64,000 bases of DNA. Origin: Gammaproteobacteria bacterium (GTDB taxonomy: Bacteria > Pseudomonadota > Gammaproteobacteria > Eutrophobiales > Eutrophobiaceae). A model generated the notes under the pieces. The model made no database searches, was not told the DNA's origin, and saw nothing but the letters and a program-made list of their open reading frames with translations. Of the stretch, positions 30,416 through 53,297 are shown piece after piece. Position 1 is the stretch's first letter; the number at the start of each line of letters is the position of its first letter. The position numbers and the translations under genes are program-made. The DNA lies in the NCBI GenBank assembly GCA_965222155.1, contig CBDCTH010000012.1:1088001-1152000 (forward strand). Direction: 5' to 3'.

Positions 30416-31126
30416 TCACAAAGTATGTGTTTGCCTTGGGAAGGGGGCGGGGTCGATGGCATTCTTTTCCAGTTCAGCAAATACCCGGGTGCTGGTTTCC
30501 AGCGTTCTCTGGATATGAAATTCTGTTGCCGCGCAGGCTGCGTCCACGTCACGGGACAGGGTTGTTTCCATGATTTTCAGGTGTTCCAGGTGAACATCCC
30601 GATTTTCTTCATGGGCCAATATGGCAATGAAGCGGTATCTCTTGTGTTGTTCGTAGAGTAGATGATGTAAGCGTAGCAGCCAGGGGGAGGCACAGGCGGC
30701 AATCAGGGCCTCATGAAATTCTTCGTTGCGCCGCTCCCACTCGCCCAGGTTCTTGCCATAGCTTTGTTCGGCTTTTTGCAGGCGGTGATGCGCCGCAACC
30801 AGGTTTGCTTCCCATTCATCGTCGCCGTTCCTGATGCTTTCCCGCAGCGCCTCGCATTCAAGCATGATGCGCATGCGACTCAGGTCCTGGAGGTCGTTCA
30901 TGGAAATGGGTGCAACCTTGAATCCCCGTTGTTCCTCGACCGTGACAAACCCTTCACCGGCAAGCCTGTTCAATGCTTCCCGCAACGGGCTTGCCCCGAT
31001 CTGGTAATCTTCCCGCAGTTCCTCGATGCGGAGTTTGGCGCCCGGTACCAGTTTACCGGCTATGATGTCGGAGCGAAGCTGGTTGTAGGAGGATTCAACC
31101 AGCGTTCTGGCAGGTGAAGGTGGCAT
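30416..31126 (-). CDS. GntR/FCD-family transcriptional regulator, divergent from the aromatic cluster
   Basis: wHTH LRSDII.G.L.PG.KLRI..L...YQIGASPLREAL..L..EG.V; FCD motifs NEEFH and EHLKI. Confidence 0.9.
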   Translation of the reverse strand: MPPSPARTLVESSYNQLRSDIIAGKLVPGAKLRIEELREDYQIGASPLREALNRLAGEGFVTVEEQRGFKVAPISMNDLQDLSRMRIMLECEALRESIRNGDDEWEANLVAAHHRLQKAEQSYGKNLGEWERRNEEFHEALIAACASPWLLRLHHLLYEQHKRYRFIAILAHEENRDVHLEHLKIMETTLSRDVDAACAATEFHIQRTLETSTRVFAELEKNAIDPAPFPRQTHTL

Positions 31127-31166
31127 TGTCAGGAGCTATTTATGATTATATTTGCTACCATATCAG

Positions 31167-31208
31167 AATATCGATAAAATAAACAAATATCGATTTTCAT
31201 TGATTTTC
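31167..31208. promoter_or_regulatory. Candidate GntR operator (repeated ATATCGAT boxes) in the divergent promoter
   Basis: AATATCGATAAAAT (31167) and AAATATCGATTTTC (31185); same core at 41828. Confidence 0.5.
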
Positions 31209-31227
31209 TAATACTATAAATAACAAC

Positions 31228-32019
31228 ATGCTGGAATTATATACCCATCCGATGTCACCTTGCTCCCAGAAGGTGCGAATTGTGCTGGCGGAAAAGAGTC
31301 TTGACTGGGAGAAACGTCACGTGAACCTGGCGGAAAAGGAGAACCTGACTCCGGCATATCTCAGGTTGAATCCCCTCGGTGTCGTGCCGACCCTGGTAGA
31401 CGGGGGGAATCCGGTCATCGAATCATCCATTATCTGTGAGTACCTGGAAGACAAATTCCCCGGGCCGGGACTGCGACCTGATAATCCCTACCACAGGGCA
31501 CAGATGCGTTTCTGGATGAAACACGTGGACATCAAGGTTCATCCCAGTTGCGGCGCTTTGCAATGGCCGTTGTTGATGGCGGACAAACTCTTGCAAATGT
31601 CGGAGGCGCAGAGGGATGCCATGATCGACCGGGTTGTGGAAAAACCTCGGCGCGAACGCCAGCGGCGTCTGTTGAAGCAGGGTTATGACGCCCCTGATGT
31701 CGTTGACGCCGTCGCTACGTATGAGAAAACCATTGCCGATATGGAACAGTTATTGAGCGGGCAGGAGTGGCTGGCGGGTGACCGGTTTTCCCTGGCTGAC
31801 GCGGCTATGGCGCCGTATTTTCAAACCCTGTATCAATTTGGCTGGACCGACTGGTACCGGAACCGTAAAAATGTCGCGGCCTGGTATGAAAGATGTCTGA
31901 ATCGTCCATCCTATCAAACAGGAGTTGCGGCCGATTTCCCCGCGCAAAAACTGGCTGAACTGAAAAGCAAGGGCGCAACGCCCTGGCAAAAAATACAAGA
32001 GCATCTCGGGGCAGGGTAA
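31228..32019 (+). CDS. Glutathione S-transferase with N-terminal S-P-C-S motif
   Basis: LYTHPMSPCSQKVR, LNPLGVVPTL, IESSIICEYL, WLAGDRFSLAD. Confidence 0.88.
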   Translation: MLELYTHPMSPCSQKVRIVLAEKSLDWEKRHVNLAEKENLTPAYLRLNPLGVVPTLVDGGNPVIESSIICEYLEDKFPGPGLRPDNPYHRAQMRFWMKHVDIKVHPSCGALQWPLLMADKLLQMSEAQRDAMIDRVVEKPRRERQRRLLKQGYDAPDVVDAVATYEKTIADMEQLLSGQEWLAGDRFSLADAAMAPYFQTLYQFGWTDWYRNRKNVAAWYERCLNRPSYQTGVAADFPAQKLAELKSKGATPWQKIQEHLGAG

Positions 32020-32110: not shown

Positions 32111-32536
32111 ATGAAAGTTACTGTAGAGCAGAACAATATCCACTGGGAAGCAGCCCATGCGCTGGTACAGGCCGCAGTAAAGCAGGCTGATGAAATGAAC
32201 GTAACAGTCAACGTCGCGGTGGTGGACAGCGGCGGTCACCTGGCTGCTTTCCTGCGCATGCCGGGTTCGGCGTTCCACTCCGTTGACGTGGCCATAAGTA
32301 AGGCTTACACGGCTATGAGTTTCGGTATGCCTACGTCACAGTGGCAGAATGTCATCGATAATTTGTCTGTTCCGTGTCAAACGGGCCTGCCGTCGGTGGA
32401 TCGGTTGATGACTTGCGGCGGGGGTGTCCCCATAGAAGTCGATGGGCTTCGCATCGGCGCCATCGGCGTCTCCGGGGCGAGTGAAAAACAGGATGAGGAA
32501 ATTGCAGAAAATGCGCTGAAAATTCTGCATGAATGA
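32111..32536 (+). CDS. GlcG/HbpS (DUF336) haem-binding protein
   Basis: VAVVDSGGHL.AFLRM, KAYTA, GGVPI...GAIGVSGAS..QD. Confidence 0.88.
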   Translation: MKVTVEQNNIHWEAAHALVQAAVKQADEMNVTVNVAVVDSGGHLAAFLRMPGSAFHSVDVAISKAYTAMSFGMPTSQWQNVIDNLSVPCQTGLPSVDRLMTCGGGVPIEVDGLRIGAIGVSGASEKQDEEIAENALKILHE

Positions 32537-32648: not shown

Positions 32649-34139
32649 ATGCACGCAAAAGTAGAACAAGTCTTTTCAGGTACGCCGTTTTGTCATTTCG
32701 TTAACGGCGAATTTATCGGATCTGCCGGCGGCAGGATGTTCGATACGCTTAACCCGGCAACGGGTGAGGCCTATGCACAGGTGCATGAAGCGGGCAGGGA
32801 AGAGGTCGACGCGGCAGTCAACGCTGCCCGTGCCGCCTTGACGGGATCCTGGGGCGCAATGACGGTACAGCAACGGGTCGCGTTATTGTATGACCTGGCC
32901 GACGGGATTAATGCCCGGTTCGATGATTTTCTTGAAGCGGAATGCCTTGATACCGGCAAACCCTGGTCATTGGCCAGGCACGTCGATATTCCACGGGGCG
33001 CGGCCAACTTCAAAATCTTTGCGGATATCATCAAGAACGTCCCCGCAGAATCCTTCATGATGGATACCCCGGACGGGGCCGGGGCGCTGAATTATGCGTT
33101 GCGCGTACCCAAGGGTGTTATCGGTGTCATCTGTCCCTGGAATCTGCCCTTGCTGCTGATGACCTGGAAAGTCGGGCCGGCACTGGCCTGCGGTAACACC
33201 GTCGTTGTCAAACCGTCGGAGGAAACCCCCGCGACGGCAACCCTGCTGGGCGAGGTGATGAATTCAGTAGGTATACCCGCGGGAGTATACAACGTAGTGC
33301 ATGGTTTCGGTCCCGATTCCGCCGGTCAGTTTCTGACTGAGCATCCGGGCGTGGACGCCATTACGTTTACCGGTGAAACGGTCACGGGCACCCAAATCAT
33401 GAAGGCCGCGGCAGTCGGCCTGCGCGACGTATCGTTTGAACTGGGCGGAAAGAACGCGGGAGTGGTGTTTGCCGACTGTGATATGGATAAGGCCATAGAG
33501 GGGACTACGCGCTCTGCGTTTGCCAATTGCGGCCAGGTTTGCCTGGGAACGGAAAGGGTTTACGTTGAACGGCCTGTGTTCGCCGAATTCGTGCAACGGC
33601 TCAAACTGGGTGCGGAAAACCTGGCGCCGGGACGACCTGAACTGGCAACGACCACCCTGGGACCCATGATCAGCCGGCAGCAAAGGGAAAAGGTGCTGTC
33701 CTATTATCGAAAGGCCAGGGAGGAGGGGGCAGAAATTATTACCGGCGGCGCTGTTCCGCAAGTGCCTGATGAACTTGGAGGCGGTTTCTGGGTGGAACCG
33801 ACTATCTGGACGGGTTTGCCCGAGTCAGCGCCGGTTATTCGAGAGGAGATCTTCGGTCCCTGCTGTCATATTCAGCCCTTTGATGAAGAATCGGAGGTAA
33901 TCAGCATGGCTAACGATACGCCTTACGGGCTGGCAACGGCAATATGGACGGGTGACGCGGCGCGTGCACATCGGGTTGCCGCTGCCATTGAGGTTGGTAT
34001 TACCTGGGTTAATTGCTGGTTCCTGCGGGATCTCAGGACACCTTTCGGCGGCTCCAAACAATCGGGCATCGGCCGGGAAGGTGGTGTACACTCGCTGGAG
34101 TTCTATACTGAAATGCGCAACGTGTGTTTGAAATTGTAA
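32649..34139 (+). CDS. dmpC: 2-hydroxymuconic semialdehyde dehydrogenase
   Basis: HVDIPRGAANF, PWNLPLLLMTWKVGPALA, ELGGKN, NCGQVCLGTER, WFLRDLRTPFGGSKQSGIGREGGVHSLEFY. Confidence 0.93.
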   Translation: MHAKVEQVFSGTPFCHFVNGEFIGSAGGRMFDTLNPATGEAYAQVHEAGREEVDAAVNAARAALTGSWGAMTVQQRVALLYDLADGINARFDDFLEAECLDTGKPWSLARHVDIPRGAANFKIFADIIKNVPAESFMMDTPDGAGALNYALRVPKGVIGVICPWNLPLLLMTWKVGPALACGNTVVVKPSEETPATATLLGEVMNSVGIPAGVYNVVHGFGPDSAGQFLTEHPGVDAITFTGETVTGTQIMKAAAVGLRDVSFELGGKNAGVVFADCDMDKAIEGTTRSAFANCGQVCLGTERVYVERPVFAEFVQRLKLGAENLAPGRPELATTTLGPMISRQQREKVLSYYRKAREEGAEIITGGAVPQVPDELGGGFWVEPTIWTGLPESAPVIREEIFGPCCHIQPFDEESEVISMANDTPYGLATAIWTGDAARAHRVAAAIEVGITWVNCWFLRDLRTPFGGSKQSGIGREGGVHSLEFYTEMRNVCLKL

Positions 34140-34457: not shown

Positions 34458-35249
34458 ATGACTTTTGCTGCAGACAAAATACTATCCTACGGTAATACAC
34501 TCTACGATTGTCTACGCAAGCGCAATACTATCGAGCCGTTAACGGAGCAGGAGGCTGATATTACCATTGAGGACGCCTATCGTATTGCACTGCAATTGTT
34601 GCAGCGACGACTGGGCGATGGTGAAAAAATCATCGGTAAAAAAATCGGCGCTACCAGCAAGGCCGTACAAAATATGTTGAAGGTGAACCAGCCGGATTTT
34701 GGTTACCTGACTGACCGCATGGTCTATAACAACGGCGATGAAATGCCCATCAGTTCGGTACTAATCCAGCCCAAGGCAGAAGGAGAAATAGCGTTTATCC
34801 TGAAACACGACCTGGAAGGGCCGGGCGTGACCAATGCCGCCGTCCTGCGGGCGACGGAATGCGTGATGCCTTGTTTTGAAATAGTCGATTCACGCATCAA
34901 GGATTGGAAAATCAAGATCCAGGATACCATTGCCGATAATGCCTCCTGTGGTCTGTTCATGCTGGGTGACCGGGCCGTTGACCCGCGGCGCGTTGACCTG
35001 GTGACCTGCGGTATGGTGCATTCAAAGAACGGCGAAGTCATTGCCACGGGCGCCGGCGCCGCGGCCCTGGGATCGCCGGTTAACTGTGTTGCCTGGCTGG
35101 CGAATACCCTGGGCGAATTCGGCATCAAGCTGGAGGCCGGTGAGGTGATCCTGTCGGGTTCCCTGGTTCCCCTGCATCCGATAGTGCCGGGAGACTCGAT
35201 GAATTTATCCATTGGCGCTATCGGCAATGCATCAGTCCGGTTTACATAA
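34458..35249 (+). CDS. dmpE: 2-oxopent-4-enoate hydratase
   Basis: GKKIGATSKAVQNML.VNQPDFG, IQPKAEGE, EIVDSRIKDWKIKIQDTIADNAS. Confidence 0.92.
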   Translation: MTFAADKILSYGNTLYDCLRKRNTIEPLTEQEADITIEDAYRIALQLLQRRLGDGEKIIGKKIGATSKAVQNMLKVNQPDFGYLTDRMVYNNGDEMPISSVLIQPKAEGEIAFILKHDLEGPGVTNAAVLRATECVMPCFEIVDSRIKDWKIKIQDTIADNASCGLFMLGDRAVDPRRVDLVTCGMVHSKNGEVIATGAGAAALGSPVNCVAWLANTLGEFGIKLEAGEVILSGSLVPLHPIVPGDSMNLSIGAIGNASVRFT

Positions 35250-35540: not shown

Positions 35541-36449
35541 ATGAAAGTAAATGCTGCCCTGGTCGGTTCCGGGAATATCGGAACGGACCTGATGATGAAG
35601 GCGTTACGCAGTGACTGGATCAATCCGGTCTGGATGGTGGGGATAGATCCTGCCTCGGACGGTTTGGCGAAGGCGAGAGCCAGCGGTTTGAGGACCACCC
35701 ACGCGGGGGTGGATGATCTGCTTGAGCATATCGATGCTGACGGCATCAAGATTGCTTTTGATGCGACTTCCGCTTATATCCATCTGGAAAACTCCAGGAA
35801 ACTGGAGGCGCGCGGCGTGCTGGTTATCGACCTGACGCCGGCAGCCATCGGCCCTTACTGTGTGCCGCCCGTTAACCTGCAGGAGCACGTAGGCAGACAG
35901 GAGACCAATGTGAACATGGTCAGTTGCGGCGGGCAGGCTACAATCCCCATGGTCGCGGCGGTGAGCAGGGTGCAACCGGTGAAATATGCTGAGATCGTTG
36001 CCACGGTGGCGTCAAAGTCCGCAGGGCCAGGCACGCGCAAAAACATCGACGAATTCACCCGCACCACGGCTGACGGCATAGAACAGGTCGGCGGCGCCAA
36101 ACAAGGCAAGGCGATCATCATCCTCAACCCGGCGGAACCCCCCATGATTATGCGCGATACCATCCATTGCCTGACGGAAGACACTCCAGATGAGGACGCG
36201 ATCACAAAATCCGTCCATGACATGATCAGGGAAGTGCAAAGATACGTGCCGGGATATAAATTGAAAAACGGACCGGTGTTCGACGGCAACCGTGTGTCCA
36301 TTTTCATGGAAGTGAAAGGTCTGGGGGATTATCTGCCGGAATATGCGGGTAACCTGGACATTATGACTGCTGCCGCGTTACGCACCGGTGAGATGTTTGC
36401 GGAGGAAATCATTAATGGCGAGTTGCAGTTGGAAGCTGTTAACGCCTGA
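35541..36449 (+). CDS. dmpF: Acetaldehyde dehydrogenase (acylating)
   Basis: [59 protein letters not shown]. Confidence 0.95.
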
Positions 36450-36461
36450 GGAGATGAAGCC

Positions 36462-37529
36462 ATGAACCTGACAGGTAAAAAAGTCAAACTACATGATATG
36501 TGTCTGCGTGACGGGATGCACGCCAAAGGCCACCAGATCAGCATAGAGCAAATGATAAGCGTTGCTTCGGCGCTCGACGATGCGGGCATTCACCTTATCG
36601 AGGTGACCCACGGTGACGGACTGGGCGGCGCTTCCATCAATTACGGTTTCCCCGCCAGTTCGGATGAGGAATATCTGCGGGCAGTCATCCCGCGTATGAA
36701 AAATGCAAAAATCTCGGCGTTATTGTTGCCCGGGATAGGCACCGTGGATCATTTGAACATGGCACGGGATTGCGGTGTTCATACCATTCGCGTCGCTACC
36801 CACTGCACGGAAGCGGATGTGTCCGAACAACACATCAGTTCCGCCCGAAAGCTTGACCTGGATACGGTCGGTTTCCTGATGATGGCGCACATGGTGGAGC
36901 CGCAACATCTGCTTGCCCAAGCCAGGTTGATGGAATCTTACGGAGCCAATTGTATCTATTGCACCGATTCAGCCGGCTACATGTTGCCGGATGATGTCAC
37001 GGCCCGTATCGGGGCCTTGCGCGAAGGGTTGAATGAAGACACGGAGATTGGTTTTCATGGGCACCATAATATGGCTATGGGTATTGCCAACTCATTGGCA
37101 GCCGTCGAGGCCGGCGCGGATCGGATTGATGGTTCTGCGGCGGGTTTAGGCGCCGGCGCCGGCAACACCCCCCTGGAAGTATTCAACGCGGTGCTGGACC
37201 GGATGGGCGTTAAAACCGGCGTGGACGTATACAAGTTGATGAACGTGGCGGAGGACAATGTAGTGCCCATGATGGACCAGCAGATCCGGGTTGACCGTGA
37301 TTCACTGATTATGGGCTATGCGGGCGTGTATTCCTCTTTTCTCCTGCACGCTAAACGTGTGGGGAAAAAATACAATCTTCCTTCCGGGGATATCCTGGTT
37401 GAACTGGGGAAGATGAAAACTATCGGCGGCCAGGAAGACATGATAGAAGACGTTGCGCTGAACATGGTACGCGCACGCCGGGAATTAAAGCCTGCCCCTG
37501 CAGGTCGTAAGCAGGGGGTGGCGCAATGA
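36462..37529 (+). CDS. dmpG: 4-hydroxy-2-oxovalerate aldolase
   Basis: [46 protein letters not shown]. Confidence 0.95.
37489..37517. repeat. Small hairpin element in frame in the dmpG 3' end, overlapping the dmpH RBS
   Basis: AGCCTGCCCCTGCAGGTCGTAAGCAGGGG; its reverse complement matches the intergenic hairpin at ~6300-6325. Confidence 0.65.
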
Positions 37530-38314
37530 CGCTGGACCAGGCCACGATCAGCCAACTGGCAGAGCACCTGGAAAATGCCGAGTTGAACAGGCAGCCGGTG
37601 ACGAAAATCACCGATGCTCACCCGGAACTTGACTGGGATGACGCCTATTCCATCCAGTATGAGATCCGCCGTCGTAAAACAGAGCGCGGTGGTAAAATCG
37701 TCGGTCTGAAAATGGGTTTGACCTCCCAGGCAAAAATGAAACAGATGGGCGTGGCTACGCCGGTGTATGGGTTTTTGTCTGATTACGGCAGTTATGCCGA
37801 CGGCGCAGAAATCGATACGGGGGCGTTTATCCATCCCCGGGTGGAAGCGGAAGTGGCCGTTATGACCAGGACAGAGTTGGCCGGGCCGGGTTGTCATATC
37901 GGCCAGGTGTTGCCGGCCATAGATTTCATTACCGGGGCAGTGGAGATCATAGATTCCCGTTATGAAAATTTTCGGTTTGACCTGAAAAGTGTCATTGCCG
38001 ATAATACTTCAGCCGCAGGTTTTGTCTGCGGCAGCGTGATTCGGGATGCGGCTGAGGTGGACCTGCCGACCCTTGGGGTTGTAATGGAGAAAAACGGCGA
38101 AGTAGTGGAAACCGGCGCAGGCGCTGCAGTACTGGGGCATCCCGCGTCCAGCGTGGCCATGCTGGCAAACATGCTGGCGGCGCGCGGAGAAGTCATACCT
38201 GCCGGGACGTTTATCATGACCGGCGGCATAACGGCAGCCGTTGCAGTGGGGAAGGGCGATGCTGTTAATGTGCGTTTTCAGGGCCTGGGCAAGGTCAGTT
38301 TCCGAATGATCTGA
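37526..38314 (+). CDS. dmpH: 4-oxalocrotonate decarboxylase
   Basis: [46 protein letters not shown]. Confidence 0.92.
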
Positions 38315-38365: not shown

Positions 38366-39355
38366 TTGTTTAATAACATAACCAAGAACCTGGCCAGGGT
38401 TGCACATTGTTGCCTGTTGGCTGTTATCTTTATGCTGTCTTCCGGCTGTGAAGCGCCGCTGGTATTGGACGAAGTGGAAACAGCCGAACGGTCTCCGCTA
38501 CGCAGGACGGATAATTTTCAGGCAGTCGGTTCCTTCGGGCAGAATATTGTTGCGGTGGGAGCAAGCGGAGTCATCCTGACGTCAGGGGACAGCGGGGCCA
38601 CCTGGCAACGGCAGCAAATTCCTTCCTGGCCTTCCTTCCTGGATATCACCAGTTGCAGTGACGGCCTGTTCGCCGCATTGGCCTTTGAAGGCGAAGTGTG
38701 GCTTTCCAGCGACGCCGGCCTGACCTGGAGCCAGAGTAAACTCACTACCGAGGAGGCGCCGCAGTCTATCCAGTGCGACCCCGCAGATAATTTGTGGGTG
38801 GTAGGCAGTTTTTCCACCGTATCGATCAGCCGGGATGGCGCTGCGACCTGGGAGGTGTCCTCCCGGGATGAAGACATGATTTACACGGATATCCAGTTTT
38901 TTGATGAGCGGACCGCTTACATCGCCGGTGAATTCGGTTCCCTGCTGAAAACCAGGGATGCCGGAGCCACCTGGGAATCAATGCCCATCATGCCCGATGA
39001 GTTTTATCCGCAGAGCATGTATTTTGAAGATCTGGACAAGGGCTGGATTGCCGGCCTGGGCGGTGTCGTCCTTGAAACGTCTGACGGCGGACAGAGCTGG
39101 CAGATACAGGCTACCGGCAGCCTGGTCACCTTGTACACCCTGGCTAAATCCAACGGTAATGTATTCGTCGTCGGTGGTGAAGGCACCATATTCCGTTATG
39201 ACGGAGGAAAGTGGGCGCCGGTCGATCACGGCCAACCGTTCCGCCTGTACCTGCGCGGGATACAGCCCCTGGCTGGTCACCGCTTGATCGTCAGCGGTCC
39301 CGGGGGCGTATTGCACGTCTTTTCAATTGAAGAACTACTGAACAGTGATAATTAA
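38366..39355 (+). CDS. YCF48/BNR-repeat beta-propeller lipoprotein
   Basis: Lipobox-like LSSGC; repeated Asp-box S.D.G.TW motifs; TTG start after a G-rich RBS. Confidence 0.85.
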   Translation: MFNNITKNLARVAHCCLLAVIFMLSSGCEAPLVLDEVETAERSPLRRTDNFQAVGSFGQNIVAVGASGVILTSGDSGATWQRQQIPSWPSFLDITSCSDGLFAALAFEGEVWLSSDAGLTWSQSKLTTEEAPQSIQCDPADNLWVVGSFSTVSISRDGAATWEVSSRDEDMIYTDIQFFDERTAYIAGEFGSLLKTRDAGATWESMPIMPDEFYPQSMYFEDLDKGWIAGLGGVVLETSDGGQSWQIQATGSLVTLYTLAKSNGNVFVVGGEGTIFRYDGGKWAPVDHGQPFRLYLRGIQPLAGHRLIVSGPGGVLHVFSIEELLNSDN

Positions 39356-44120: not shown

Positions 44121-45428
44121 ATGATTAAGTATGTCAAGTATCTCGTTATACTACCGCTGTTTGCCCTGAGTCTGGGTGTTTCGGCAGAATTTACAGAAGA
44201 AGATGTAAGAAATTCATTCTATCCTTATGAAAACTGGACACCGGAATTTCCGGGTTACACCCCCGGAATGGTGATCGACCAAAGCAACGTGGAGCAGTTC
44301 AAGGATATTCTCGACCCGGCATTGTATGACCACATCATAAAAGGTCAGACCGCGTTGCAGACCAAGGTGACGGAATCCCTGGAACTGCACCCGGGCTATA
44401 TCAATGCGACGCTGGAAGCCGTGAAAAATCCACCGTCGCTCAGCGCTGACGGTCTGGTGGATAATTTTGTCGCAGGCAGGGCATTCCCTGCCGAACCGGA
44501 TGTCAATGACCCCCAGGCCGGCCGCAAACTCGCCTGGAATTACCAGTACGGCTATAACTGGGGTGACAATGCAGCGATTTCCCCGTTTTACTGGAAGTTC
44601 AGGAATGCCAAGTCGGGGAAACTGGAACGCACCATCAAGTGGAGCTTCCACTTCCTGAACTGGAAACACCGAGTCAACCAGGACCCGGTCCCGGAGTTCA
44701 CGGATAATCCGGCCCAGTTGTTCCGTTCCGTTTACGTCAAGGCACTGGAACCGTTTGATATCGCCAATACGCAACTCCTTATTCACCGCTATAAAAACGA
44801 CCTGAAGCGGGATGATGCCTGGTTGTACCTGGGCTTCCAGCGGCGAGTGCGGCGTCTGGCAACGGGTCAGACAACGGATTCTTTCCTGGGTACGGATATC
44901 ATGATCGAGGATTTTGAAGGTTACAACAACCGCGTGTCCGACTATGACTGGACCTATATCGGCAGCAAGAACGCATTTCTGCCGTTCCATAATCATAATG
45001 AGTTGGCCCTGGCCACCGACATGCCGCCGGAACCTGATGGTTACCAGTTCGTAGACGTGGAGGGTTGTTTTCCCAAGACCACCTGGGAACTGCGTAAAAT
45101 TTATGAGCTGCATGGATCGGCCAAGGACCCGAACCACCCGTTGAGTCGGCGCGTGATGTATCTCGACGCGCAGACGTTTACCATACCCCGCCAGGCGGAG
45201 TTCGATCGCAAGGGAGACCTGTGGAAATCATTCTCCATCTGCCAGGCCTATCCTGACAATCACATGCCCAATAACGTAGGCTCCGGCGTGGCCATTGATG
45301 ACTGTTTCATGATGTATGATGTGCAGGCCCAGCACTGCACCACCGGTCAGTTCAAGGGCCAGCTTGATCCGACATTGAACCCACCGCAGATGTTCACGGT
45401 GCAGAACCTGCGCAAGAGCGGAAGGTAG
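44121..45428 (+). CDS. DUF1329-family periplasmic protein (LolA-like fold family)
   Basis: Signal peptide; AGRAFP..P..AGRKLAWN; AWLYLGFQRRVRRL; D.FLGTD..IEDF.GYN. Confidence 0.88.
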   Translation: MIKYVKYLVILPLFALSLGVSAEFTEEDVRNSFYPYENWTPEFPGYTPGMVIDQSNVEQFKDILDPALYDHIIKGQTALQTKVTESLELHPGYINATLEAVKNPPSLSADGLVDNFVAGRAFPAEPDVNDPQAGRKLAWNYQYGYNWGDNAAISPFYWKFRNAKSGKLERTIKWSFHFLNWKHRVNQDPVPEFTDNPAQLFRSVYVKALEPFDIANTQLLIHRYKNDLKRDDAWLYLGFQRRVRRLATGQTTDSFLGTDIMIEDFEGYNNRVSDYDWTYIGSKNAFLPFHNHNELALATDMPPEPDGYQFVDVEGCFPKTTWELRKIYELHGSAKDPNHPLSRRVMYLDAQTFTIPRQAEFDRKGDLWKSFSICQAYPDNHMPNNVGSGVAIDDCFMMYDVQAQHCTTGQFKGQLDPTLNPPQMFTVQNLRKSGR

Positions 45429-45718: not shown

Positions 45719-46312
45719 ATGACTGAGCGTGTTGATTTAAAGTTTTTTTTCAATTTCCGCAGTCCCTACTGTTATCTCGCCAGCAAAACGATGTTCAGTC
45801 TGGTGGATGATTATCATGTAAATTTCGTCTGGCGCCCACTGGCAGGGTGGAATGGCCGTTCAGCCCCGGAACGGGCCAAAGTCAAGATACCCATTACCCG
45901 GCAGGACGTGGCCCGCTGGGCGAAGCGGATGAATATTCCCTGTATTCCCCCTCCCATTACCACTGACCCGACACCGGCAGGTATCGGCTCCTTACTGGCC
46001 GAAGAGAAAGGTTGTTTGCGGGAATATATCATCAAAGTGACGGACACCGAATGGGGGCAGGGAGTGGATATCGGCCAGCCCGATACACTGATCGGATTAG
46101 CCAGGGAAGTGGGGCTTGATCCTGTTGAGTTTGAGACGGTATTAAACGACCCGGACAAACAAAAAATTCTGGAAGACAACTGGCAGGAGGCCCAGGAAGC
46201 CGGAGTAATCGGCGTGCCGACGTTTGTCATAGACGACCAGGTATTCTGGGGTAATGACCGGATTGATTTCGTCCATGAGCACCTTCGTGATCTGGGACTG
46301 CAAAAAACATAA
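45719..46312 (+). CDS. 2-hydroxychromene-2-carboxylate isomerase-like (DsbA/kappa-GST) protein
   Basis: FFFNFRSPYCYL, D.ARWA, GVIGVPTFVID..FWGNDR. Confidence 0.85.
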   Translation: MTERVDLKFFFNFRSPYCYLASKTMFSLVDDYHVNFVWRPLAGWNGRSAPERAKVKIPITRQDVARWAKRMNIPCIPPPITTDPTPAGIGSLLAEEKGCLREYIIKVTDTEWGQGVDIGQPDTLIGLAREVGLDPVEFETVLNDPDKQKILEDNWQEAQEAGVIGVPTFVIDDQVFWGNDRIDFVHEHLRDLGLQKT

Positions 46313-46491: not shown

Positions 46492-48741
46492 ATGCGACTT
46501 TTTTCTCATAAAAACCGGGCAATGCATCTTGGCCCTTTTGCCCTTGAAAGGCTCGCCAGGAGGGATTCAGGACCTGACTATCCAGTCCTCGGGGAACAAC
46601 GCCCTCTGGAAACGACTACGCCGGACAACCCCGTATCCATGGCTAATGCGTTCCGCGATTATATCGACCTGTTCGACCGGATGCGCCTGGGTGATCCTGC
46701 TCCCAGACAGGCGCCGATCCCGTCCGACCCACAGGCGCGCGCAGACCACCTGAAAGCCGCGTGTTATAACCTGGACGTCAGTATGGCGGCAACCTGCGCC
46801 ATACCCGAACAGGCGCTGCTGGCAGAGCCCATCATTAATGAATCCCTGGCGCAGGCGCAGGAAAAAGAATACCTGGCCGGTTCTGCCGCCAATGTCGTGG
46901 CAGAGACCAGCGTCAAGGAAGGCCGGAAGGCATGGCAGCGCTCCCTGGAGGACGCGGCTAAGGAGTTCAAGCATGGTTACGCGCTGGTTTTACTGGTGGA
47001 ATACACCAGGGAACCGGATCCCGATGTTGAGAGTGAAGCCTGGCTGGTTGGAACGCAAGCACAACGGGCCGCGGTCAGGGCCTCTGAAGCGGCTGCCGTC
47101 ATGGTGAATTACATCCGATTTCTGGGTTTTGAAGCAAGATTACATACGCCGACGGCAAGCGATTTTGATCTCGATTACCTGTTACTCTGCAGTGGCCTGG
47201 GTGAGGTCAACGGCAGCAACGGCAACAGCACTGTCAGCAATCCCTACCTGGGCGATCAATTCGGCCTGGCCGTGATTTCAACGACCATGGAGCTTGCAGC
47301 AGATAAGCCGTTGGCTGAAAGGGGGCCAATGGCATCCTTGAAATCCCATGGTCCGGGCTGGTGGCTGGGCCTGGGTGGCGCGCGACCGGGTTACAAGGGT
47401 CGGCTGTACAAAAACAGGCCGTTTTACCTGGGACCTTACCCTATGGAAAAATTGAAGCCTCAGGAAACCACCACCACCCTGATTGACGCACCGAATGTGC
47501 CGCGTATCCCCAAGCGGCATGATATGTTCCTCAGGGCGGCAATGGGCGACCTGGGGGAAAAGCCGCAAAAGGAATTGGAAAACTTTCGCATGATCACCAA
47601 GTCGCCCTACGGCCACGCCATGGTGCCGCCGTTGGGCGCAATGGTCCCGCTCCAGTACGGCAAGGAGGCGGACCGGATCATGGAAGGGACTGACGATCCG
47701 AAAAAAAACGCTGAGGCGGTAAAAGCCGCCCTGTATTACCTGGGCGCGGATATGGTGGGTATCTGTAAGTTACCGGACTATGCCTGGTATTCCCATGATC
47801 TGGATGGAGCGGAGATAAAGCCGTACCACAAATACGGGATCGCCATCCTGGTGGACCAGGGGTACGAAACCATGGAAGGGGCCAGCGGTGATGACTGGAT
47901 CAGCGGTGCGCAAAGTATGCGCGCTTACCTGCGCGCGCAACTGATTGGGGGCATTGTCGGCAGCCATATTCGTTCCCTGGGTTACTCTGCCCGTGGCCAC
48001 AGCGTGATGGACCAGGACGTGCTGCATATACCGATTATACTGGGAGCCGGTCTGGGCGAGTTGAGCCGGATTGGTGAACTGGTATTAAACCCCTACGTAG
48101 GGCCGCGCTTTAAATCGGGCATCATCACGACCGACCTGCCGTTGTTGCCGGATAAGCCCATAGATTTCGGATTGCAGGATTTTTGTGAGAAATGCACCAA
48201 GTGCGCCAGGGAATGTCCGTGCCAGGCGATCCCTTACGGTGACAAGATCATGTTCAACGGCTATGAAATGTGGAAGCCGGACGTGGAAAAGTGTGCCCGC
48301 TACCGTATCACCAACTCCGCCGGCGCGTTGTGCGGCCGTTGCATGAAAACCTGCCCCTGGAATATTGAAGGGGTATTGGCCGAGAGGCCTTTCCTGTGGG
48401 CAGCCATGAACCTGCCTTTTACCCGGAAGTGGATCGCCAGACTGGATGACATAGTCGGCAACGGTTTGATCAATCCGGTGAAAAAATGGTGGTGGGACCT
48501 GGATTCGGACGAGCAAGGCAATATTATCCCGGCCAGGCGAACCAACAGACGCCAGTTTTCGACACGCACGAATATGGATCCGGAAAAGCAAACCATGGGT
48601 TGTTATCCGGCAGATATAGCAGCGCCGCCGGTCGCGGAAAAACCAGTTATCCTGCACAGGAAGATAGCCGTACAGAGATACAAGAGCGCAGAGAGCCCGG
48701 ACGAATACAAGGCCCGAAAAATGATGAAAGAGGTTGGCTGA
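46492..48741 (+). CDS. rdhA: Catabolic-type (soluble, TAT-less) cobalamin-dependent reductive dehalogenase
   Basis: Duplicated HLGP(F/Y).(L/M)E.L units; GADMVGIC; SMRAY; AGLGELSRIGE..LNPY.GPRFKS; Fe-S motifs FCEKCTKCARECP and C...CGRCMKTCPW; KKWWWDL. No twin-arginine leader and no fused reductase. Confidence 0.92.
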   Translation: MRLFSHKNRAMHLGPFALERLARRDSGPDYPVLGEQRPLETTTPDNPVSMANAFRDYIDLFDRMRLGDPAPRQAPIPSDPQARADHLKAACYNLDVSMAATCAIPEQALLAEPIINESLAQAQEKEYLAGSAANVVAETSVKEGRKAWQRSLEDAAKEFKHGYALVLLVEYTREPDPDVESEAWLVGTQAQRAAVRASEAAAVMVNYIRFLGFEARLHTPTASDFDLDYLLLCSGLGEVNGSNGNSTVSNPYLGDQFGLAVISTTMELAADKPLAERGPMASLKSHGPGWWLGLGGARPGYKGRLYKNRPFYLGPYPMEKLKPQETTTTLIDAPNVPRIPKRHDMFLRAAMGDLGEKPQKELENFRMITKSPYGHAMVPPLGAMVPLQYGKEADRIMEGTDDPKKNAEAVKAALYYLGADMVGICKLPDYAWYSHDLDGAEIKPYHKYGIAILVDQGYETMEGASGDDWISGAQSMRAYLRAQLIGGIVGSHIRSLGYSARGHSVMDQDVLHIPIILGAGLGELSRIGELVLNPYVGPRFKSGIITTDLPLLPDKPIDFGLQDFCEKCTKCARECPCQAIPYGDKIMFNGYEMWKPDVEKCARYRITNSAGALCGRCMKTCPWNIEGVLAERPFLWAAMNLPFTRKWIARLDDIVGNGLINPVKKWWWDLDSDEQGNIIPARRTNRRQFSTRTNMDPEKQTMGCYPADIAAPPVAEKPVILHRKIAVQRYKSAESPDEYKARKMMKEVG

Positions 48742-48742: not shown

Positions 48743-50320
48743 ATGAGCGCCGTGCTGGAAAAAGAAACCCTGAAAAATAATGTTCGCCCCTACACCGGCG
48801 ATGAATTTCTTGCGGACCTGAAAGATGATCGGGAAATCTGGATCTATGGTAAGCGCGTTAAGGATGTAACGGAGCACCCTGCCTTTCGTAATCCTGCCCG
48901 GATGATGGCGCGGCTGTACAACGCGTTGCATAACGAGAAGGAATACCCGCACCTGCGAACCGATACGGATACCGGCAACGGCGGCTTTACCCATCCCTAT
49001 TTTAAAGTGGCGCGAACGCGTGAGGAAGTGATTGCGCAACGTGAAGCGATTGCCCAATGGGCGCGCCTGACGTATGGCTGGATGGGACGTACCCCTGACT
49101 ATAAGGCCAGCCTCATGCTCACCCTGGGATTTAACCCGGAATACTTCGGTGATTATGCCGGGAACGCCTTGAACTGGTACAGGAATTCACAGGAACGCGT
49201 GCCTTTTTTGAATCATGCCCTGGTCAATCCCCCGGTAGACCGCAATAAATCCCATGAGGAGATAGAGGACGTTTATATGCACTGCGTCAAGGAAACTGAC
49301 GAAGGCATCATTATTTCCGGCGCCAAGGTGGTGGCCACCGGGTCGGCATTGACCCATTACAATTTTCTCGGACAGTACGGGCCGATACCCGTCAGAGACA
49401 AACGCTTTGCCATAAGCGGCATGCTGAAAATGAATACCCCCGGTGTCAAGCTGCTTTGCCGTCCTTCATACTCGTATGCGGCTGAAGTAATGGGCAGTCC
49501 GTTCGATAACCCGCTGTCGAGTCGGCTGGATGAAAACGATGCGATCCTGATACTGGACAATGCCCTGATGCGCTGGGAGGATATCTTCATTTACCAGGAC
49601 CTGGACGCGGCCAGCACTTTCCTGGGCACATCCGGCTGGGCCTATACATTTGCGTTTCATGGTTGTACCCGTCTCGCGGTCAAGTTTGATTTTATTACCG
49701 GATTATTCATGAAGGCCCTGGAGATCACCGGCACAAAGGATTTTCGCGGCGTACAGGTGGCAATCGGTGAAATGATCGTCTGGCGCCACCTGTTCTGGGC
49801 GTTATCGGACGCCATGTGCGGTATGCCCGACGATTTCAAGGGAGCAAAAGTGCCGAACGGTAATGCCGGCCATGTGTACCGGGTACTGATGACCATGGCC
49901 TATCCCCGGGCAAAGGAGTTGATAGAGAACATGGTCGCCAGCGGTCTGATTTACCTGAATTCCCATGCCACGGATTTTAACGTACCGGAGTTGAAGGGTT
50001 ACTTGGACAAATACCTGCGGGGTTCCTACGGTCATAATGCGGAAGACAGGGTCAAGACCATGCGCCTGCTATGGGATGCCATCGGCACGGAGTTCGGCGG
50101 TCGCCACGAACTGTATGAGCGCAACTATTCCGGTAATAATGAAAACATCCGAATCGAAGCATTATGGTCAGCACAGGGTTCCGGCCTGGATAAACAACTC
50201 AAGGACTTTGCCCAGCAGTGTATGGATGAATATGACGTCAACGGCTGGACTGTGGCTGATCTTGTCAACCCGTATGACGTGAATTTATTCATGAAAAAAT
50301 CCGCAGATGCCGCAGATTAA
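48743..50320 (+). CDS. Two-component flavin-dependent monooxygenase, oxygenase subunit (HpaB/PheA1 type)
   Basis: RPYTGDEFL..L.D.REIWIYG.RV.DVT.HPAFRN, YGWMGRTPDYKA, NHALVNPPVDR, SSRLDENDAI, EFGGRHELYERNYSG. ATG starts 2 nt after the rdhA stop. Confidence 0.9.
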   Translation: MSAVLEKETLKNNVRPYTGDEFLADLKDDREIWIYGKRVKDVTEHPAFRNPARMMARLYNALHNEKEYPHLRTDTDTGNGGFTHPYFKVARTREEVIAQREAIAQWARLTYGWMGRTPDYKASLMLTLGFNPEYFGDYAGNALNWYRNSQERVPFLNHALVNPPVDRNKSHEEIEDVYMHCVKETDEGIIISGAKVVATGSALTHYNFLGQYGPIPVRDKRFAISGMLKMNTPGVKLLCRPSYSYAAEVMGSPFDNPLSSRLDENDAILILDNALMRWEDIFIYQDLDAASTFLGTSGWAYTFAFHGCTRLAVKFDFITGLFMKALEITGTKDFRGVQVAIGEMIVWRHLFWALSDAMCGMPDDFKGAKVPNGNAGHVYRVLMTMAYPRAKELIENMVASGLIYLNSHATDFNVPELKGYLDKYLRGSYGHNAEDRVKTMRLLWDAIGTEFGGRHELYERNYSGNNENIRIEALWSAQGSGLDKQLKDFAQQCMDEYDVNGWTVADLVNPYDVNLFMKKSADAAD

Positions 50321-50329: not shown

Positions 50330-50689
50330 GCCACAGAGGACACAGAGGACACAGAGGATACAGAGAACACAGAGAACACAGAGGATACAGAGGATACAGA
50401 GAACACAGAGAACACAGAGAACACAGAGGATACAGAGGATACAGAGAACACAGAGGACACAGAGTTAGCCAGAAGACGTCATTCCGGGCTTGGCCCGGAA
50501 TCCAGTAAACAAATATACCTTATAAATAATGAATAATTTATTGACTGGATTCTGGCATTCGCCAGAATGACAGGAATGGCGGGAATGACAGGAATGGCGG
50601 GAATGGCAGGAATGGCGAGAATGGCAGGAATGGCGAGAATGGCAGGAATGGCAGAAATCCGTTTCTGTGCTCTCTGTGTCCTCTGTGGC
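50330..50689. repeat. Nested composite repeat with expanded 9 bp tandem runs
   Basis: About 15 x ACAGAG(G/A)A(C/T) at 50333-50464; family A doublet at ~50478-50570; about 10 x GAATG(G/A)C(A/G)G; CTCTGTGTCCTCTGTGGC. Confidence 0.9.
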
Positions 50690-50707
50690 ATAAAAAATAT
50701 ACGTCTT

Positions 50708-52018
50708 ATGCAAATAATCATGTCATTGCAAACCCTGACTCACATATTGTTTTTCTACTTACTGGCAAGCTCCGCCGTGGTAAGGGCAGACGTTATCGAG
50801 CAGTCGTTTGCCGTTGACCATGAGAAAACCGCATCGCTCAATCCCGCGCCCGGTACGGTTATTACAAAAGAAAACGTTGCTTCGTTCAGTACTATTCTCG
50901 CACCGAAACTTGCGGAGTTGATCAATGATGAATTTTTGACGATCACCACGGGCGAGGCTCTATCCTTTGCCACGCACCCTGCCTACCTGGAGGCCACCAG
51001 GCACTACCTGGACACAACCGAGCTTGGGGAAGAACCGGGAATTATTCGCAACTACGTGGCCGGCAGGCCGTTCCCCCGGGAACCACAGCTTGATGATCCC
51101 AGGGCAGGAGACAAGCTGGCCTGGAACCTGCGTTATACCTATATATACGACAGTGGAGAACTCTCAAGCTTTTATTGGCAGTATAAGAGTATCCTCAGAG
51201 ACAAGCTGGAAAGGGAGTTATCTTTCTATGCAAGCTCCATGAAGTTCATGCACAGGCACGTACAGGAACCCATCCCCTCTATGCCTAACAATCCTTCACA
51301 GGTCTATCATGGGCTTTACCTGAAGGTATTGGCGCCCCCGGATTTGCGCGGGACACAATTACTGGTGCAACGCCTGGAAGATGACACCAAGCAGGAGCAA
51401 ACCTGGCTTTACCTTTCCAGCCACCGCCGAGTCCGGCGCCTGGCGTCCGGTCAGACAACGGACGCGTTTCTGGGCAGTGATATCATGATAGAGGATTTTC
51501 TCGGTTATAACGGTCGTATCATGGACCAGAAATGGACTTACAAGGGGGTTACCTGGGTATTGTTGCCGTTCTTTAATCATGATCAGCAACCTCTGGTAGA
51601 TGCAGGGCAGCAATTGGACGGTTTTCAATTTATCGGTTTCCATGGCAAGGGCGGCTGTTTTCCGAATGTCACCTGGCACCTGCGTAAGGCCTATATCCTG
51701 GAAGCAGAGCCGTACTGGAAACAGCATCCTTTGTCGAAACGGCGTTATTACCTGGATGCCCAGACGATGCTGCCGGTTTACGGGCATATCTTCGACAGGC
51801 CCGGCAACCTGTGGAAAGTCGCCATCGCCGCTTACTCTCACCCGGACCGGCATCACCCATCCAACCTGGGTTCGGGCACGCCTATCATCGATGCGGTCTC
51901 CATGATTGACATCCAGGCCCTGCACTGCACGACCCTCCAATTCAAGGCAGTACTACCGGAGAAAGCATTTCGCGAGACGGATTTCACTGTGCAGGCTTTA
52001 CGCGCCAAGGGGCGCTGA
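50708..52018 (+). CDS. Second DUF1329-family periplasmic protein
   Basis: Paralogue of 44121-45428 (AGRPFP..AGDKLAWN, WLYL..RRVRRL, D.FLGSDI.IEDF.GYN). True start is 50708 or 50720; the ORF-track N-terminus is translated repeat. Confidence 0.85.
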   Translation: MQIIMSLQTLTHILFFYLLASSAVVRADVIEQSFAVDHEKTASLNPAPGTVITKENVASFSTILAPKLAELINDEFLTITTGEALSFATHPAYLEATRHYLDTTELGEEPGIIRNYVAGRPFPREPQLDDPRAGDKLAWNLRYTYIYDSGELSSFYWQYKSILRDKLERELSFYASSMKFMHRHVQEPIPSMPNNPSQVYHGLYLKVLAPPDLRGTQLLVQRLEDDTKQEQTWLYLSSHRRVRRLASGQTTDAFLGSDIMIEDFLGYNGRIMDQKWTYKGVTWVLLPFFNHDQQPLVDAGQQLDGFQFIGFHGKGGCFPNVTWHLRKAYILEAEPYWKQHPLSKRRYYLDAQTMLPVYGHIFDRPGNLWKVAIAAYSHPDRHHPSNLGSGTPIIDAVSMIDIQALHCTTLQFKAVLPEKAFRETDFTVQALRAKGR

Positions 52019-52022
52019 GCGG

Positions 52023-52340
52023 GTGCACAAGATAACGCTGGTATGCGCCGGGGAACGGGCTGATTTTAATTGTGCAGATAAGGCGTCGATACTGAAGTCT
52101 GCCTATGCGGCCGGATTTCAGTTGGCCTGTGGCTGCCTGCAGGGTCGTTGCAGGACGTGTCGTGCGCGCTTGCTGAAAGGCAGTGTAAGATCGCTTCGCC
52201 CTCTATCAAGATATGCTACTATTGACCCGGCAAACCTTGAGGATGGAAGCGTGCTGCTGTGTTCTGTTACGCCACTTGAGGATATAGATATTGAGCCTCA
52301 CTCAAAGTGGGAACCTGGACGAAACTGTAACACGGAGTAA
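52023..52340 (+). CDS. Plant-type 2Fe-2S ferredoxin (XylT-like)
   Basis: GCLQGRCRTC (C-x4-C-x2-C) plus VLLC; GTG start at 52023. Confidence 0.8.
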   Translation: MHKITLVCAGERADFNCADKASILKSAYAAGFQLACGCLQGRCRTCRARLLKGSVRSLRPLSRYATIDPANLEDGSVLLCSVTPLEDIDIEPHSKWEPGRNCNTE

Positions 52341-52427
52341 CAGGATGCGCAGGACAGATGATATATGTCCGGTAATCCTGTATATCCTGTCCATCCATGT
52401 AAAAAATACGATATAAGGGGACTAATC

Positions 52428-53297
52428 ATGCGTGATTTTACTATCGATAACCTGACGGAAATTGTGCTGGAGGAATACGGTTCCAAAACAGAAGATCCCA
52501 GGTTCAGACAAATTATCACTTCATTAATCAAACACGTGCACGCCTTTGTCAAAGACGTGGAACTGACGGAAGAGGAATGGTTCAAGGCAATCATGTTTTT
52601 AACCAGGACCGGCCAGACCTGCGATGACAAGCGCCAGGAGTTTATCCTGTTATCGGACGTGCTGGGTGTGTCCATGCTGGTAGATGCGATCAACCACCCC
52701 AAGTCGGGCAGGGGGACGGAATCCACGGTACTGGGACCGTTTTACGTAGCGGGCGCGCCGGAATATGAAAACGGCGCCAGCATCATAAAACAGCAATATG
52801 CCGCTCAAGTCGCATTGGTACAGGGGAAAGTGACGGACCCCGACGGCGCCTCCATAGCCGGCGCAAAACTGGATGTGTGGCAGACTGCCGCCAATGGCTA
52901 TTATGATGTACAGGATCAGTCCATGCCCGAAAATAATATGCGCGGTATTTTCACTACAGATACAGAGGGTAACTATACCTTTGTGACGGAAAAGCCGTTG
53001 TCCTACTCCATACCAACGGATGGCCCCGTCGGCGATCTGCTCAGGACCAGCCGACGCCACGGCATGAGGCCCGCCCATATCCATTTCGTCGTGTCGGCGG
53101 ACGGCTATGAGCCGTTGACGACCCATGTATTTTCTGATGGCGATGAATACCTGGACTCGGACGCGGTGTTTGCCACCAAGAGTTCACTGATCGGCTATTA
53201 CACGGAGTCCGATGACGCTGATCTGGCGACCCGCTATAATCTTTCCGTACCGTTCAGCCACCTGCAATTTGATATGGGTCTGATGCCGACCCGATAA
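52428..53297 (+). CDS. Intradiol ring-cleavage dioxygenase, hydroxyquinol 1,2-dioxygenase-like
   Basis: RQEFILLSDVLGVSMLVD, TESTVLGPFY, VWQ..NGYYD.QD, YSIPTDGPVG, RPAHIHF (Tyr/His iron ligands). Confidence 0.9.
   Translation: MRDFTIDNLTEIVLEEYGSKTEDPRFRQIITSLIKHVHAFVKDVELTEEEWFKAIMFLTRTGQTCDDKRQEFILLSDVLGVSMLVDAINHPKSGRGTESTVLGPFYVAGAPEYENGASIIKQQYAAQVALVQGKVTDPDGASIAGAKLDVWQTAANGYYDVQDQSMPENNMRGIFTTDTEGNYTFVTEKPLSYSIPTDGPVGDLLRTSRRHGMRPAHIHFVVSADGYEPLTTHVFSDGDEYLDSDAVFATKSSLIGYYTESDDADLATRYNLSVPFSHLQFDMGLMPTR

Follow-up and report, generated by a model that had tools for sequence, protein, structure and literature searches.

Genus-conserved gene string around a reductase-less catabolic reductive dehalogenase, with a putative role in the catabolism of ortho-halogenated phenols

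The 64,000-nucleotide (nt) stretch of the genome of an uncultured marine gammaproteobacterium that was analysed here (the window: positions 1,088,001 to 1,152,000 of contig CBDCTH010000012.1, forward strand, assembly GCA_965222155.1, family Eutrophobiaceae) contains, at 31228-53297, a string of catabolic genes that includes rdhA, the gene of a reductive dehalogenase. The string is conserved in the genus, and we consider it fairly probable that it serves the catabolism of ortho-halogenated, most likely brominated, phenols without a carboxylate, by way of two branches that are each half encoded in it. Genes were called from a listing of open reading frames (ORFs) and from Pfam and NCBIfam scans, with the equivalog cut-offs as thresholds. 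The identities of the genes, their conservation and their distribution are direct observations, from which we infer the substrate, the direction of transport, the routing of products and co-regulation.

In the proposed scheme, a cytoplasmic RdhA equipped with B12 and [4Fe-4S] clusters would strip halogens next to the phenolic hydroxyl, as its catalytic and hydroxyl-binding residues suggest. In one branch, a phenol hydroxylase and a catechol 2,3-dioxygenase encoded far from the string would turn phenol into catechol and then into 2-hydroxymuconic semialdehyde, which DmpC, DmpH, DmpE, DmpG and DmpF of the cluster would carry to pyruvate and acetyl-CoA. In the other branch, an HpaB-type enzyme would ortho-hydroxylate para-oxygenated or para-halogenated phenols to a hydroxyquinol, a hydroxyquinol-type dioxygenase would open the ring to maleylacetate, and a distant maleylacetate reductase and 3-oxoacid CoA-transferase would complete the route. 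An envelope module resembling AmeABCD would handle toxic hydrophobic phenols, and both glutathione-type enzymes of the string might act as helpers.

RdhA and its active site

The rdhA gene (46492..48741, + strand) encodes a protein of 749 aa, which was placed by hidden Markov model scores and PDB match scores as a cytoplasmic, reductase-less catabolic reductive dehalogenase of the NpRdhA type. Its residues 1-104 and 160-742 align with NpRdhA of Nitratireductor pacificus pht-3B (4RAS, also 6ZXU; 578 bits and E 1.5e-172 with 4RAS), and it passes the TIGR02486 model (199 bits, cut-off 160), whereas respiratory PceA yields 95 bits only. The alignment takes in the N-terminal domain, a part without counterpart in respiratory RdhAs. 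RdhA begins with MRLFSHKNRAMHLGPF, which can be aligned with the N-terminus of NpRdhA, and a hydrophilic stretch comes next; read by eye, this region carries no twin-arginine translocation (TAT) signal. The claim of an earlier note, made from the DNA sequence of this stretch, that rdhA specifies a TAT-less catabolic enzyme is thus borne out by the scores of 4RAS and PceA. No RdhB membrane anchor is encoded beside rdhA, which is flanked by a DsbA-like gene and the HpaB gene. RdhA also lacks a C-terminal PDOR domain, its only Pfam matches being to Fer4, and thereby belongs to the reductase-less ('truncated') subtype; fused relatives exist, such as P0062 (1103 aa), which carries Fer2 and NAD_binding domains. 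An identity as a QueG epoxyqueuosine reductase, which the earlier note had considered, is ruled out by a TIGR00276 score of 26 bits against an equivalog cut-off of 200.

RdhA thus resembles NpRdhA over its full length, N-terminal domain included, and like NpRdhA it is TAT-less and without a fused reductase; it differs by the presence of about 50 extra residues between the two aligned parts. Conservation of residues was surveyed in an alignment of 32 relatives with 53-87% identity. Both Fe-S cysteine motifs that it shares with NpRdhA, C565xxC568xxC571xxxC575P and C601, C614, C617 and C621, are invariant in the 32 sequences, as are the catalytic residues Y479, K541 and R605 (Y426, K488 and R552 in NpRdhA), and S475 (S422 in NpRdhA) is kept in 29 of them. 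In the part of PMC7565698 that describes the NpRdhA site, Y426 and K488 are presented as the proton-donor dyad; the hydroxyl of the substrate is bound by K488, R552 and S422, a hydrophobic wall is formed by F290, F310, P311, A419 and M423, and K307 at the entrance forms a salt bridge with the benzoate carboxylate of the bound product. Besides S422, the counterparts of M423 and F310 are kept in RdhA. All characterised catabolic RdhAs prefer ortho-halophenols, according to an excerpt of PMC10463259, and the conservation of the Tyr, Lys, Arg and Ser residues argues that removal of halogens ortho to a phenolic hydroxyl is likely retained in RdhA.

The pocket and its entrance depart from NpRdhA at four positions, F290M, K307L, P311R and A419G, and these departures are nearly uniform over the 32 gammaproteobacterial relatives. 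F290 is replaced by Met in 30 of the 32, P311 by Arg in 31 and A419 by Gly in 27, and the position of K307 is occupied by Leu, Met or Val in every member of the subfamily. The replacement of K307 suggests that the entrance admits a substrate without a carboxylate. A predicted complex between RdhA and its DsbA/HCCA-isomerase-like neighbour, each supplied as an alignment, received a score of 0.01, which speaks neither for nor against an interaction.

Conservation of the string and recurrence of its neighbours

A full-length ortholog of RdhA, at least 73% identical, is present in 18 of the 22 other genomes of the genus; among the remaining four, the gene is cut by a contig end in one, occurs only as fragments in another and is missing from two. 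The same query found no ortholog in 16 genomes of other families. The fragments (G002:C1:2841273-2842165) correspond to residues 1-150 and 581-745 of RdhA1, as the protein is called where a second RdhA is discussed, and may represent a decayed gene.

From at least 543 rdhA loci, 80 were kept for neighbourhood work. The order glutathione S-transferase (GST)-dmpC-E-F-G-H-Ycf48-RND-DUF1302-DUF1329-DsbA-like-RdhA is collinear in all eight genus genomes for which the 17 kb upstream of rdhA were fetched; in the same genomes, the GntR gene is in place in seven and the GlcG gene in six. The arrangement of the cluster is more than chance. Beyond rdhA, the order HpaB-DUF1329-dioxygenase is kept in five of the seven loci that extend past the gene (L001, L002, L003, L005 and L021). 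Tandem duplications after rdhA were observed in one of them (L003:12293-19981), which has two HpaB-type and three intradiol genes, then a CoA-transferase gene.

Outside the genus, RdhA is 56-67% identical at 14 loci, and the link with phenol catabolism emerges at four of these (L009, L010, L017 and L024; RdhA 61-66% identical), where rdhA lies beside dmpKLMNOP-type phenol hydroxylase genes whose products are 40-76% identical to the hydroxylase subunits of the genome studied here. In three of the four, the fetched stretch also includes a homologue of catechol 2,3-dioxygenase, and at L010 dmpC, dmpH, Ycf48 and RND genes follow. The order at L008 is Ycf48-RND-DUF1329-GST-GST-RdhA; a GST 64% identical to that of the cluster is encoded two genes upstream of rdhA, with a second GST-like ORF between them. 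The presence of a phenol hydroxylase beside distant rdhA genes supports a halophenol-to-phenol role of RdhA, and the recurrence of its neighbours in rearranged form argues for function, not descent alone. This rearranged recurrence is the best evidence that the RdhA subfamily is functionally linked with phenol catabolism, with enzymes of the glutathione type and with the envelope module.

Proposed downstream routes, envelope module and rival explanations

Every gene listed in the earlier note was confirmed by the ORF listing and the domain scans, in the order and orientation given there. The whole string is encoded on the + strand, divergent from the gene of a GntR/FCD transcription regulator (30416..31126, - strand; Pfam GntR and FCD), and the cluster ends ahead of a family III CoA-transferase gene and the housekeeping gene bipA.

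Five genes of the string belong to the lower meta-cleavage pathway, and their products exceed the respective equivalog cut-offs. They encode DmpC, 2-hydroxymuconic semialdehyde dehydrogenase (32649..34139; TIGR03216, 860 bits, cut-off 693), DmpE, 2-oxopent-4-enoate hydratase (34458..35249; TIGR03220, 426 bits, cut-off 409), DmpF, acetylating acetaldehyde dehydrogenase (35541..36449; TIGR03215, 468 bits, cut-off 282), DmpG, 4-hydroxy-2-oxovalerate aldolase (36462..37529; TIGR03217, 544 bits, cut-off 286) and DmpH, 4-oxalocrotonate decarboxylase (37526..38314; TIGR03218, 426 bits, cut-off 350). The genome has one copy each of dmpF and dmpG, dmpF giving one tblastn match. No ORF for an extradiol dioxygenase, dmpD or dmpI was found by the scans in 30416-53297. 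Genes for a dmpLMNOP-type phenol hydroxylase, a ferredoxin and a catechol 2,3-dioxygenase (C12:1692466-1693389; 428 bits, cut-off 320) are located about 551 kb away, with no lower pathway alongside. The genome thus holds much of what is known as the dmp operon (dmpKLMNOPQBCDEFGHI) in split form, with the upper part at the distant locus and the lower part in the cluster; dmpD and dmpI were not found.

The HpaB-type gene, which codes for the oxygenase subunit of a two-component flavin monooxygenase (48743..50320; Pfam HpaB_N and HpaB), begins with an ATG at 48743, and the last base of the rdhA stop is 48741, so that the 2-nt spacing reported in the earlier note holds; an alternative TTG start at 48734 would overlap rdhA. 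The product matches PDB 4OO2 with 627 bits and the E. coli-type HpaB with 588 bits, against about 100 bits for enzymes of the TcpA/HadA/NpcA type. It falls below the HpaB equivalog (TIGR02310, 670 bits against 885) and is a member of the family by PF11794 and PF03241. The HpaB-like ortho-hydroxylase postulated in the earlier note is therefore retained as a putative enzyme of the E. coli HpaB type, not of the TcpA/HadA type.

The last gene of the string (52365..53297; Pfam Dioxygenase_N and Dioxygenase_C) codes for an intradiol dioxygenase, in keeping with the earlier gene list. To judge from the ranking of PDB matches, however, the enzyme is of the hydroxyquinol 1,2-dioxygenase type and not of the catechol type: it scores 276 bits with PnpC (3N9T), 258 with 6-chlorohydroxyquinol dioxygenase and 236, 230 and 223 with other hydroxyquinol-type entries, against at most 154 bits with catechol 1,2-dioxygenases, and it stays under all catechol equivalog cut-offs. 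HpaB-family hydroxylases feed hydroxyquinol pathways such as Gra, Npc, Cph and Tcp. The pairing of an HpaB-family oxygenase with a hydroxyquinol 1,2-dioxygenase is the same here; in contrast to those systems, the hydroxylase belongs to the E. coli HpaB/4OO2 branch, not to the nitrophenol/chlorophenol branch, and neither a reductase component nor a maleylacetate reductase is encoded next to it. About 1.6 Mb away, adjoining a pcaI-type CoA-transferase gene, is a gene whose product resembles maleylacetate reductase (312-350 bits to 3JZD, 3W5S and 3HL0, with 314 for 3W5S).

The earlier note had drawn a line from dehalogenation to pyruvate and acetyl-CoA within the cluster. This does not stand, as genes for an extradiol dioxygenase, DmpD and DmpI are missing from the cluster and its ring-cleavage enzyme is of the hydroxyquinol type. 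Since maleylacetate, the expected product of that enzyme, is no substrate for DmpC-H, and since the extradiol enzyme is absent, the cluster is not a self-contained line; it is a hub in need of two distant loci.

The genes between dmpH and the DsbA-like gene encode together the four families of AmeABCD: a Ycf48/BNR-like periplasmic protein (38366..39355; PF14870; likened to AmeC as presented in part of PMC6394551), an RND inner-membrane transporter of the HAE3 family (39355..41757; AmeD-like; Pfam MMPL, and TIGR00921 HAE3 at 133 bits, under the cut-off), a DUF1302 outer-membrane protein (41886..44090; AmeA-like; PF06980) and a DUF1329 LolA-like periplasmic protein (44121..45428; AmeB-like; PF07044 and LolA_like). 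Downstream of the HpaB-type gene lies a paralogue of the DUF1329 gene (50708..52018; PF07044), and the two products share 41% identity. The first 47 or so codons of this second DUF1329 ORF are a translated intergenic repeat, and a signal-peptide-like stretch after them indicates that the start is likely near 50708. In Castellaniella defragrans 65Phen, deletion of AmeABCD lowers tolerance to monoterpenes and raises the accumulation of Nile Red, which points to efflux (PMC6394551, in part). Excerpts of other studies propose export of cell-wall components (bioRxiv 10.1101/072470) or an esterase activity (bioRxiv 10.1101/2020.07.04.188060) for such proteins, and none of these accounts speaks for import; in bioRxiv 10.1101/072470, DUF1329 and DUF1302 genes also appear in phenanthrene and p-cresol contexts, so that their link with aromatic catabolism is already known. 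AmeABCD, as far as the PMC6394551 excerpt describes it, and the present module each belong to a catabolic island whose substrate is hydrophobic and toxic. They differ in gene order, which is BNR-RND-DUF1302-DUF1329 here, in the extra DUF1329 paralogue downstream and in the associated substrate class, phenolic here and monoterpene there. By analogy, it would more probably act in efflux, tolerance or trafficking than in import, and the import proposed in the earlier note finds no backing in this nearest studied system.

Two genes of the string code for glutathione-type enzymes. The GST gene (31228..32019; Pfam GST_N and GST_C) has LigF as its top PDB match (89.6 bits) and is followed by the gene of a GlcG/HbpS-like protein (32111..32536; PF03928, 134 bits). 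The gene directly upstream of rdhA encodes a DsbA-fold protein akin to HCCA isomerase and kappa GST (45719..46312; PF01323), with 197 aa and without a CxxC motif or signal peptide; its FNFRSPYCYL motif is invariant in 30 sequences, and PDB 2IMD, an HCCA isomerase, is its best structural relative (64.6 bits). From this gene the earlier note had derived a bulky or two-ring substrate, a suggestion that finds no support: Marinobacter records name homologues with 59-60% identity, so that the protein is no evidence for such a substrate, and genes of the naphthalene type are absent. By analogy with glutathione-dependent dehalogenases and isomerases, this protein and the GST may act on halogenated quinols or ring-fission products. 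The plant-type [2Fe-2S] ferredoxin (52023..52340; PF00111, 36.9 bits; CxxxxCxxC...C motif), whose ORF probably starts at the GTG at 52023 (105 aa), is present as the earlier note had it, and yet it is specific to this genome and not a conserved member of the cluster. No homologue was found in the other core-clade loci, and DNA contigs of relatives skip 52073-52366; a role as a conserved partner of RdhA is thereby ruled out.

Parts of the cluster are covered by contigs of relatives from two metatranscriptomic libraries of a single study, with 23 and 24 of 30 bins represented; they include part of rdhA (47515-47905), and one contig of 1002 nt bridges the DUF1329 and DsbA-like genes. These contigs back expression only, and do so weakly. 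In the divergent gap between the GntR and GST genes (31160-31200), two copies of AATATCGAT occur 19 nt apart and are a candidate operator. Searches with Rfam at the gathering threshold found nothing in the whole window, hence no cobalamin riboswitch. Four gaps of the cluster (34140-34457, 35250-35540, 45429-45718 and 50321-50700) are filled by dispersed repeats resembling repetitive extragenic palindromes or miniature inverted-repeat transposable elements, each with 72 to 174 blastn matches genome-wide. In relatives, contigs run past such gaps with skips of 324, 291 and 410 nt. The repeats give rise to spurious ORF extensions, of which the first codons of the second DUF1329 ORF are an example.

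A number of points weigh against the assignment of the string to halophenol catabolism. Synteny inside one genus can be explained by descent alone, and in L004 and L007 (RdhA 76% and 73% identical, respectively) rdhA is not followed by the HpaB, DUF1329 and dioxygenase block, which makes that block a later addition. The contact of K307 with the carboxylate was observed in a non-catalytic entrance pose, and the substrate of RdhA is deduced for the subfamily as a whole. No flavin reductase is encoded within the cluster, the only Flavin_Reduct gene of the genome being about 357 kb off, and the ferredoxin, not being conserved, does not settle what donates electrons to RdhA. A 4-oxalocrotonate tautomerase (PF01361) was not found in the genome, and no dmpD was seen. 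As both downstream branches rest on distant loci, the pathway has the status of a reconstruction. The RNA-library contigs are those of relatives (85-99% likeness), and DNA may occur in such libraries. Finally, the numbers of promoters and terminators predicted in 34001-54000 (19 with 18.2 expected, and 25 with 18.7 expected) do not rise above chance and carry no information on operon structure.

Some of these points would also fit a mosaic of independent units joined by descent and sharing no common substrate, namely a general meta-cleavage lower pathway for the distant phenol hydroxylase, a pump of the AmeABCD type for solvent tolerance and a small unit made up of rdhA, hpaB and the dioxygenase gene. 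The distant phenol hydroxylase and catechol 2,3-dioxygenase depend in any case on the only dmp lower pathway of the genome, the block missing from L004 and L007 behaves as a separate piece, the repeats in the gaps imply that the string need not be one transcript, and 8 of the 14 distant loci share no cluster family or phenol hydroxylase gene beside rdhA. Such a patchwork is nevertheless unlikely, given that the same modules recur in another order next to rdhA outside the genus (L008 and L010), that phenol hydroxylase genes adjoin rdhA in 4 of the 14 distant loci, and that the genes are co-oriented behind a single divergent regulator in seven of eight genus genomes. The model of the earlier note, in which a bulky or two-ring halophenolic would be imported, debrominated, ortho-hydroxylated to a catechol and mineralised through dmpCEFGH in a self-contained manner, could appeal to the translational closeness of the RdhA and HpaB-type genes, to the catechols that HpaB-type enzymes make and to the presence of the lower meta pathway. 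It appears very doubtful: the cluster has no extradiol dioxygenase and a ring-cleavage enzyme of the hydroxyquinol type, efflux or tolerance is the function described for modules of the AmeABCD type, the HCCA-isomerase-like family occurs widely among marine gammaproteobacteria, and a Rieske dioxygenase and a hydratase-aldolase are not present.

It is more improbable still that RdhA, without supplying any carbon pathway, detoxifies or otherwise reduces a substrate that is not a phenol. The four departures of its pocket from that of NpRdhA would agree with such a role, as would the fact that the substrate of the subfamily is not established; against it stand the retention of the hydroxyl-binding S422, K488 and R552 and of the proton donor Y426, and the recurrent tie to phenol-catabolic genes. 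Catabolism of ortho-halogenated phenols without a carboxylate, through two half-encoded branches, therefore remains the reading that we favour.

Known systems, the second RdhA and other features of the genome

RdhA adds a member to the NpRdhA family, and a catabolic RdhA in an aerobic cluster is already known from BhbA (excerpt of PMC10463259). Catabolic, oxygen-tolerant reductive dehalogenases abound in marine genomes, with at least 3925 relatives at E<=1e-10 among the candidates scored. According to PMC10463259, NpRdhA adjoins a ferredoxin reductase and two ferredoxins, against one non-conserved ferredoxin here. The bromoxynil cluster of Comamonas sp. 7D-2 likewise combines a catabolic RdhA with aerobic aromatic degradation and uses the organohalide as a carbon source (PMC10463259, in part). 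BhbA, however, is encoded on a plasmid, includes a reductase domain of its own and supplies a benzoate route through protocatechuate 4,5-cleavage, whereas the RdhA studied here is reductase-less, chromosomal and tied to phenol meta-cleavage genes, hydroxyquinol genes and an envelope module, with a pathway spread over three loci.

What appears to be new is the composition, in which a reductase-less RdhA shares a genus-conserved cluster with a module of the AmeABCD type, the lower meta pathway, a hydroxylase of the HpaB type and a hydroxyquinol-type dioxygenase. The earlier note had not recognised this combination from characterised clusters, and no description of it was found in the literature searched, including searches on tribromophenol, aerobic degradation and phenol hydroxylase, supplementary tables being outside the scope; passages of PMC13200403 and PMC12879404 hold nothing relevant to the cluster. 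As stated in the excerpt of PMC10463259, a physiological pathway is known essentially for BhbA only, and the natural donor and substrates of the reductase-less type are not established. The genus-conserved cluster gives this type a likely natural job in phenol and hydroxyquinol catabolism.

A second full-length gene of the NpRdhA type, coding for RdhA2 (48% identical; TIGR02486, 193 bits), was observed elsewhere in the genome (G000:C12:201544-203745; L091:7545-9746). It is flanked on one side by genes for a malonyl-CoA-synthetase-like ligase, a DUF485 protein and an ActP-like carboxylate symporter, and on the other by paaA/paaC of the paa operon; the order ligase-DUF485-symporter-RdhA2-paaA is kept in the three genus genomes checked, and a restriction-modification pair is inserted at the locus in this genome. 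The position of NpRdhA K307 is occupied by Arg in RdhA2. Three shorter RdhA-like frames also occur (G000:C12:1002308-1002985, C4:462255-462914 and C12:372318-372701), with open frames of 337, 258 and 167 aa that are 32-38% identical over the Fe-S/corrinoid core.

Neither CbiC nor CobS was found in the genome, which is scored 100% complete; as it encodes two RdhAs and a corrinoid protein, cobalamin is probably imported and the organism probably a cobalamin auxotroph. Turnover of organohalides thus seems to depend on externally supplied B12. It is conceivable, as a tentative extension of these observations, that the genus is a cobalamin-auxotrophic specialist that mineralises natural bromophenols aerobically with a division of labour between its two reductase-less RdhAs. 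RdhA1 would act on neutral bromophenols, as suggested by its hydrophobic entrance residue, the phenol and hydroxyquinol genes and the envelope pump, and RdhA2 on brominated hydroxyphenylacetates, as suggested by its basic entrance residue, the carboxylate symporter and the paa operon. If true, this would place 'truncated' catabolic RdhAs in a physiological pathway for the first time and provide an aerobic counterpart of the anaerobic debromination by Desulfoluna in sponges. The isolate labels of several related records may denote coral or sponge bins. The cluster and RdhA2 in its contrasting context yield concrete substrate predictions and candidate enzymes for the bioremediation of bromophenols.

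Next to the regulator, a TonB-dependent receptor is encoded on the - strand (27941..30226; Pfam Plug and TonB barrel), in a position kept in seven of eight genus genomes; its identification as BtuB is ruled out (TIGR01779, 54 bits against a cut-off of 600). The corrinoid protein, which has a B12-binding domain, is encoded together with an MttB-family methyltransferase at 20045-22609. The surrounding region (20045-27839) also has two DAO/GCV_T fusion oxidases of the dimethylglycine or sarcosine dehydrogenase type and, together with a BCCT transporter gene at 1428-3023, suggests a region for quaternary-amine catabolism. Near the end of the window (62192-63863), a tandem array with a unit of about 173 nt comprises 6.5 copies at 95% match and 1.8 further copies, and the array is akin to the dispersed intergenic repeat.

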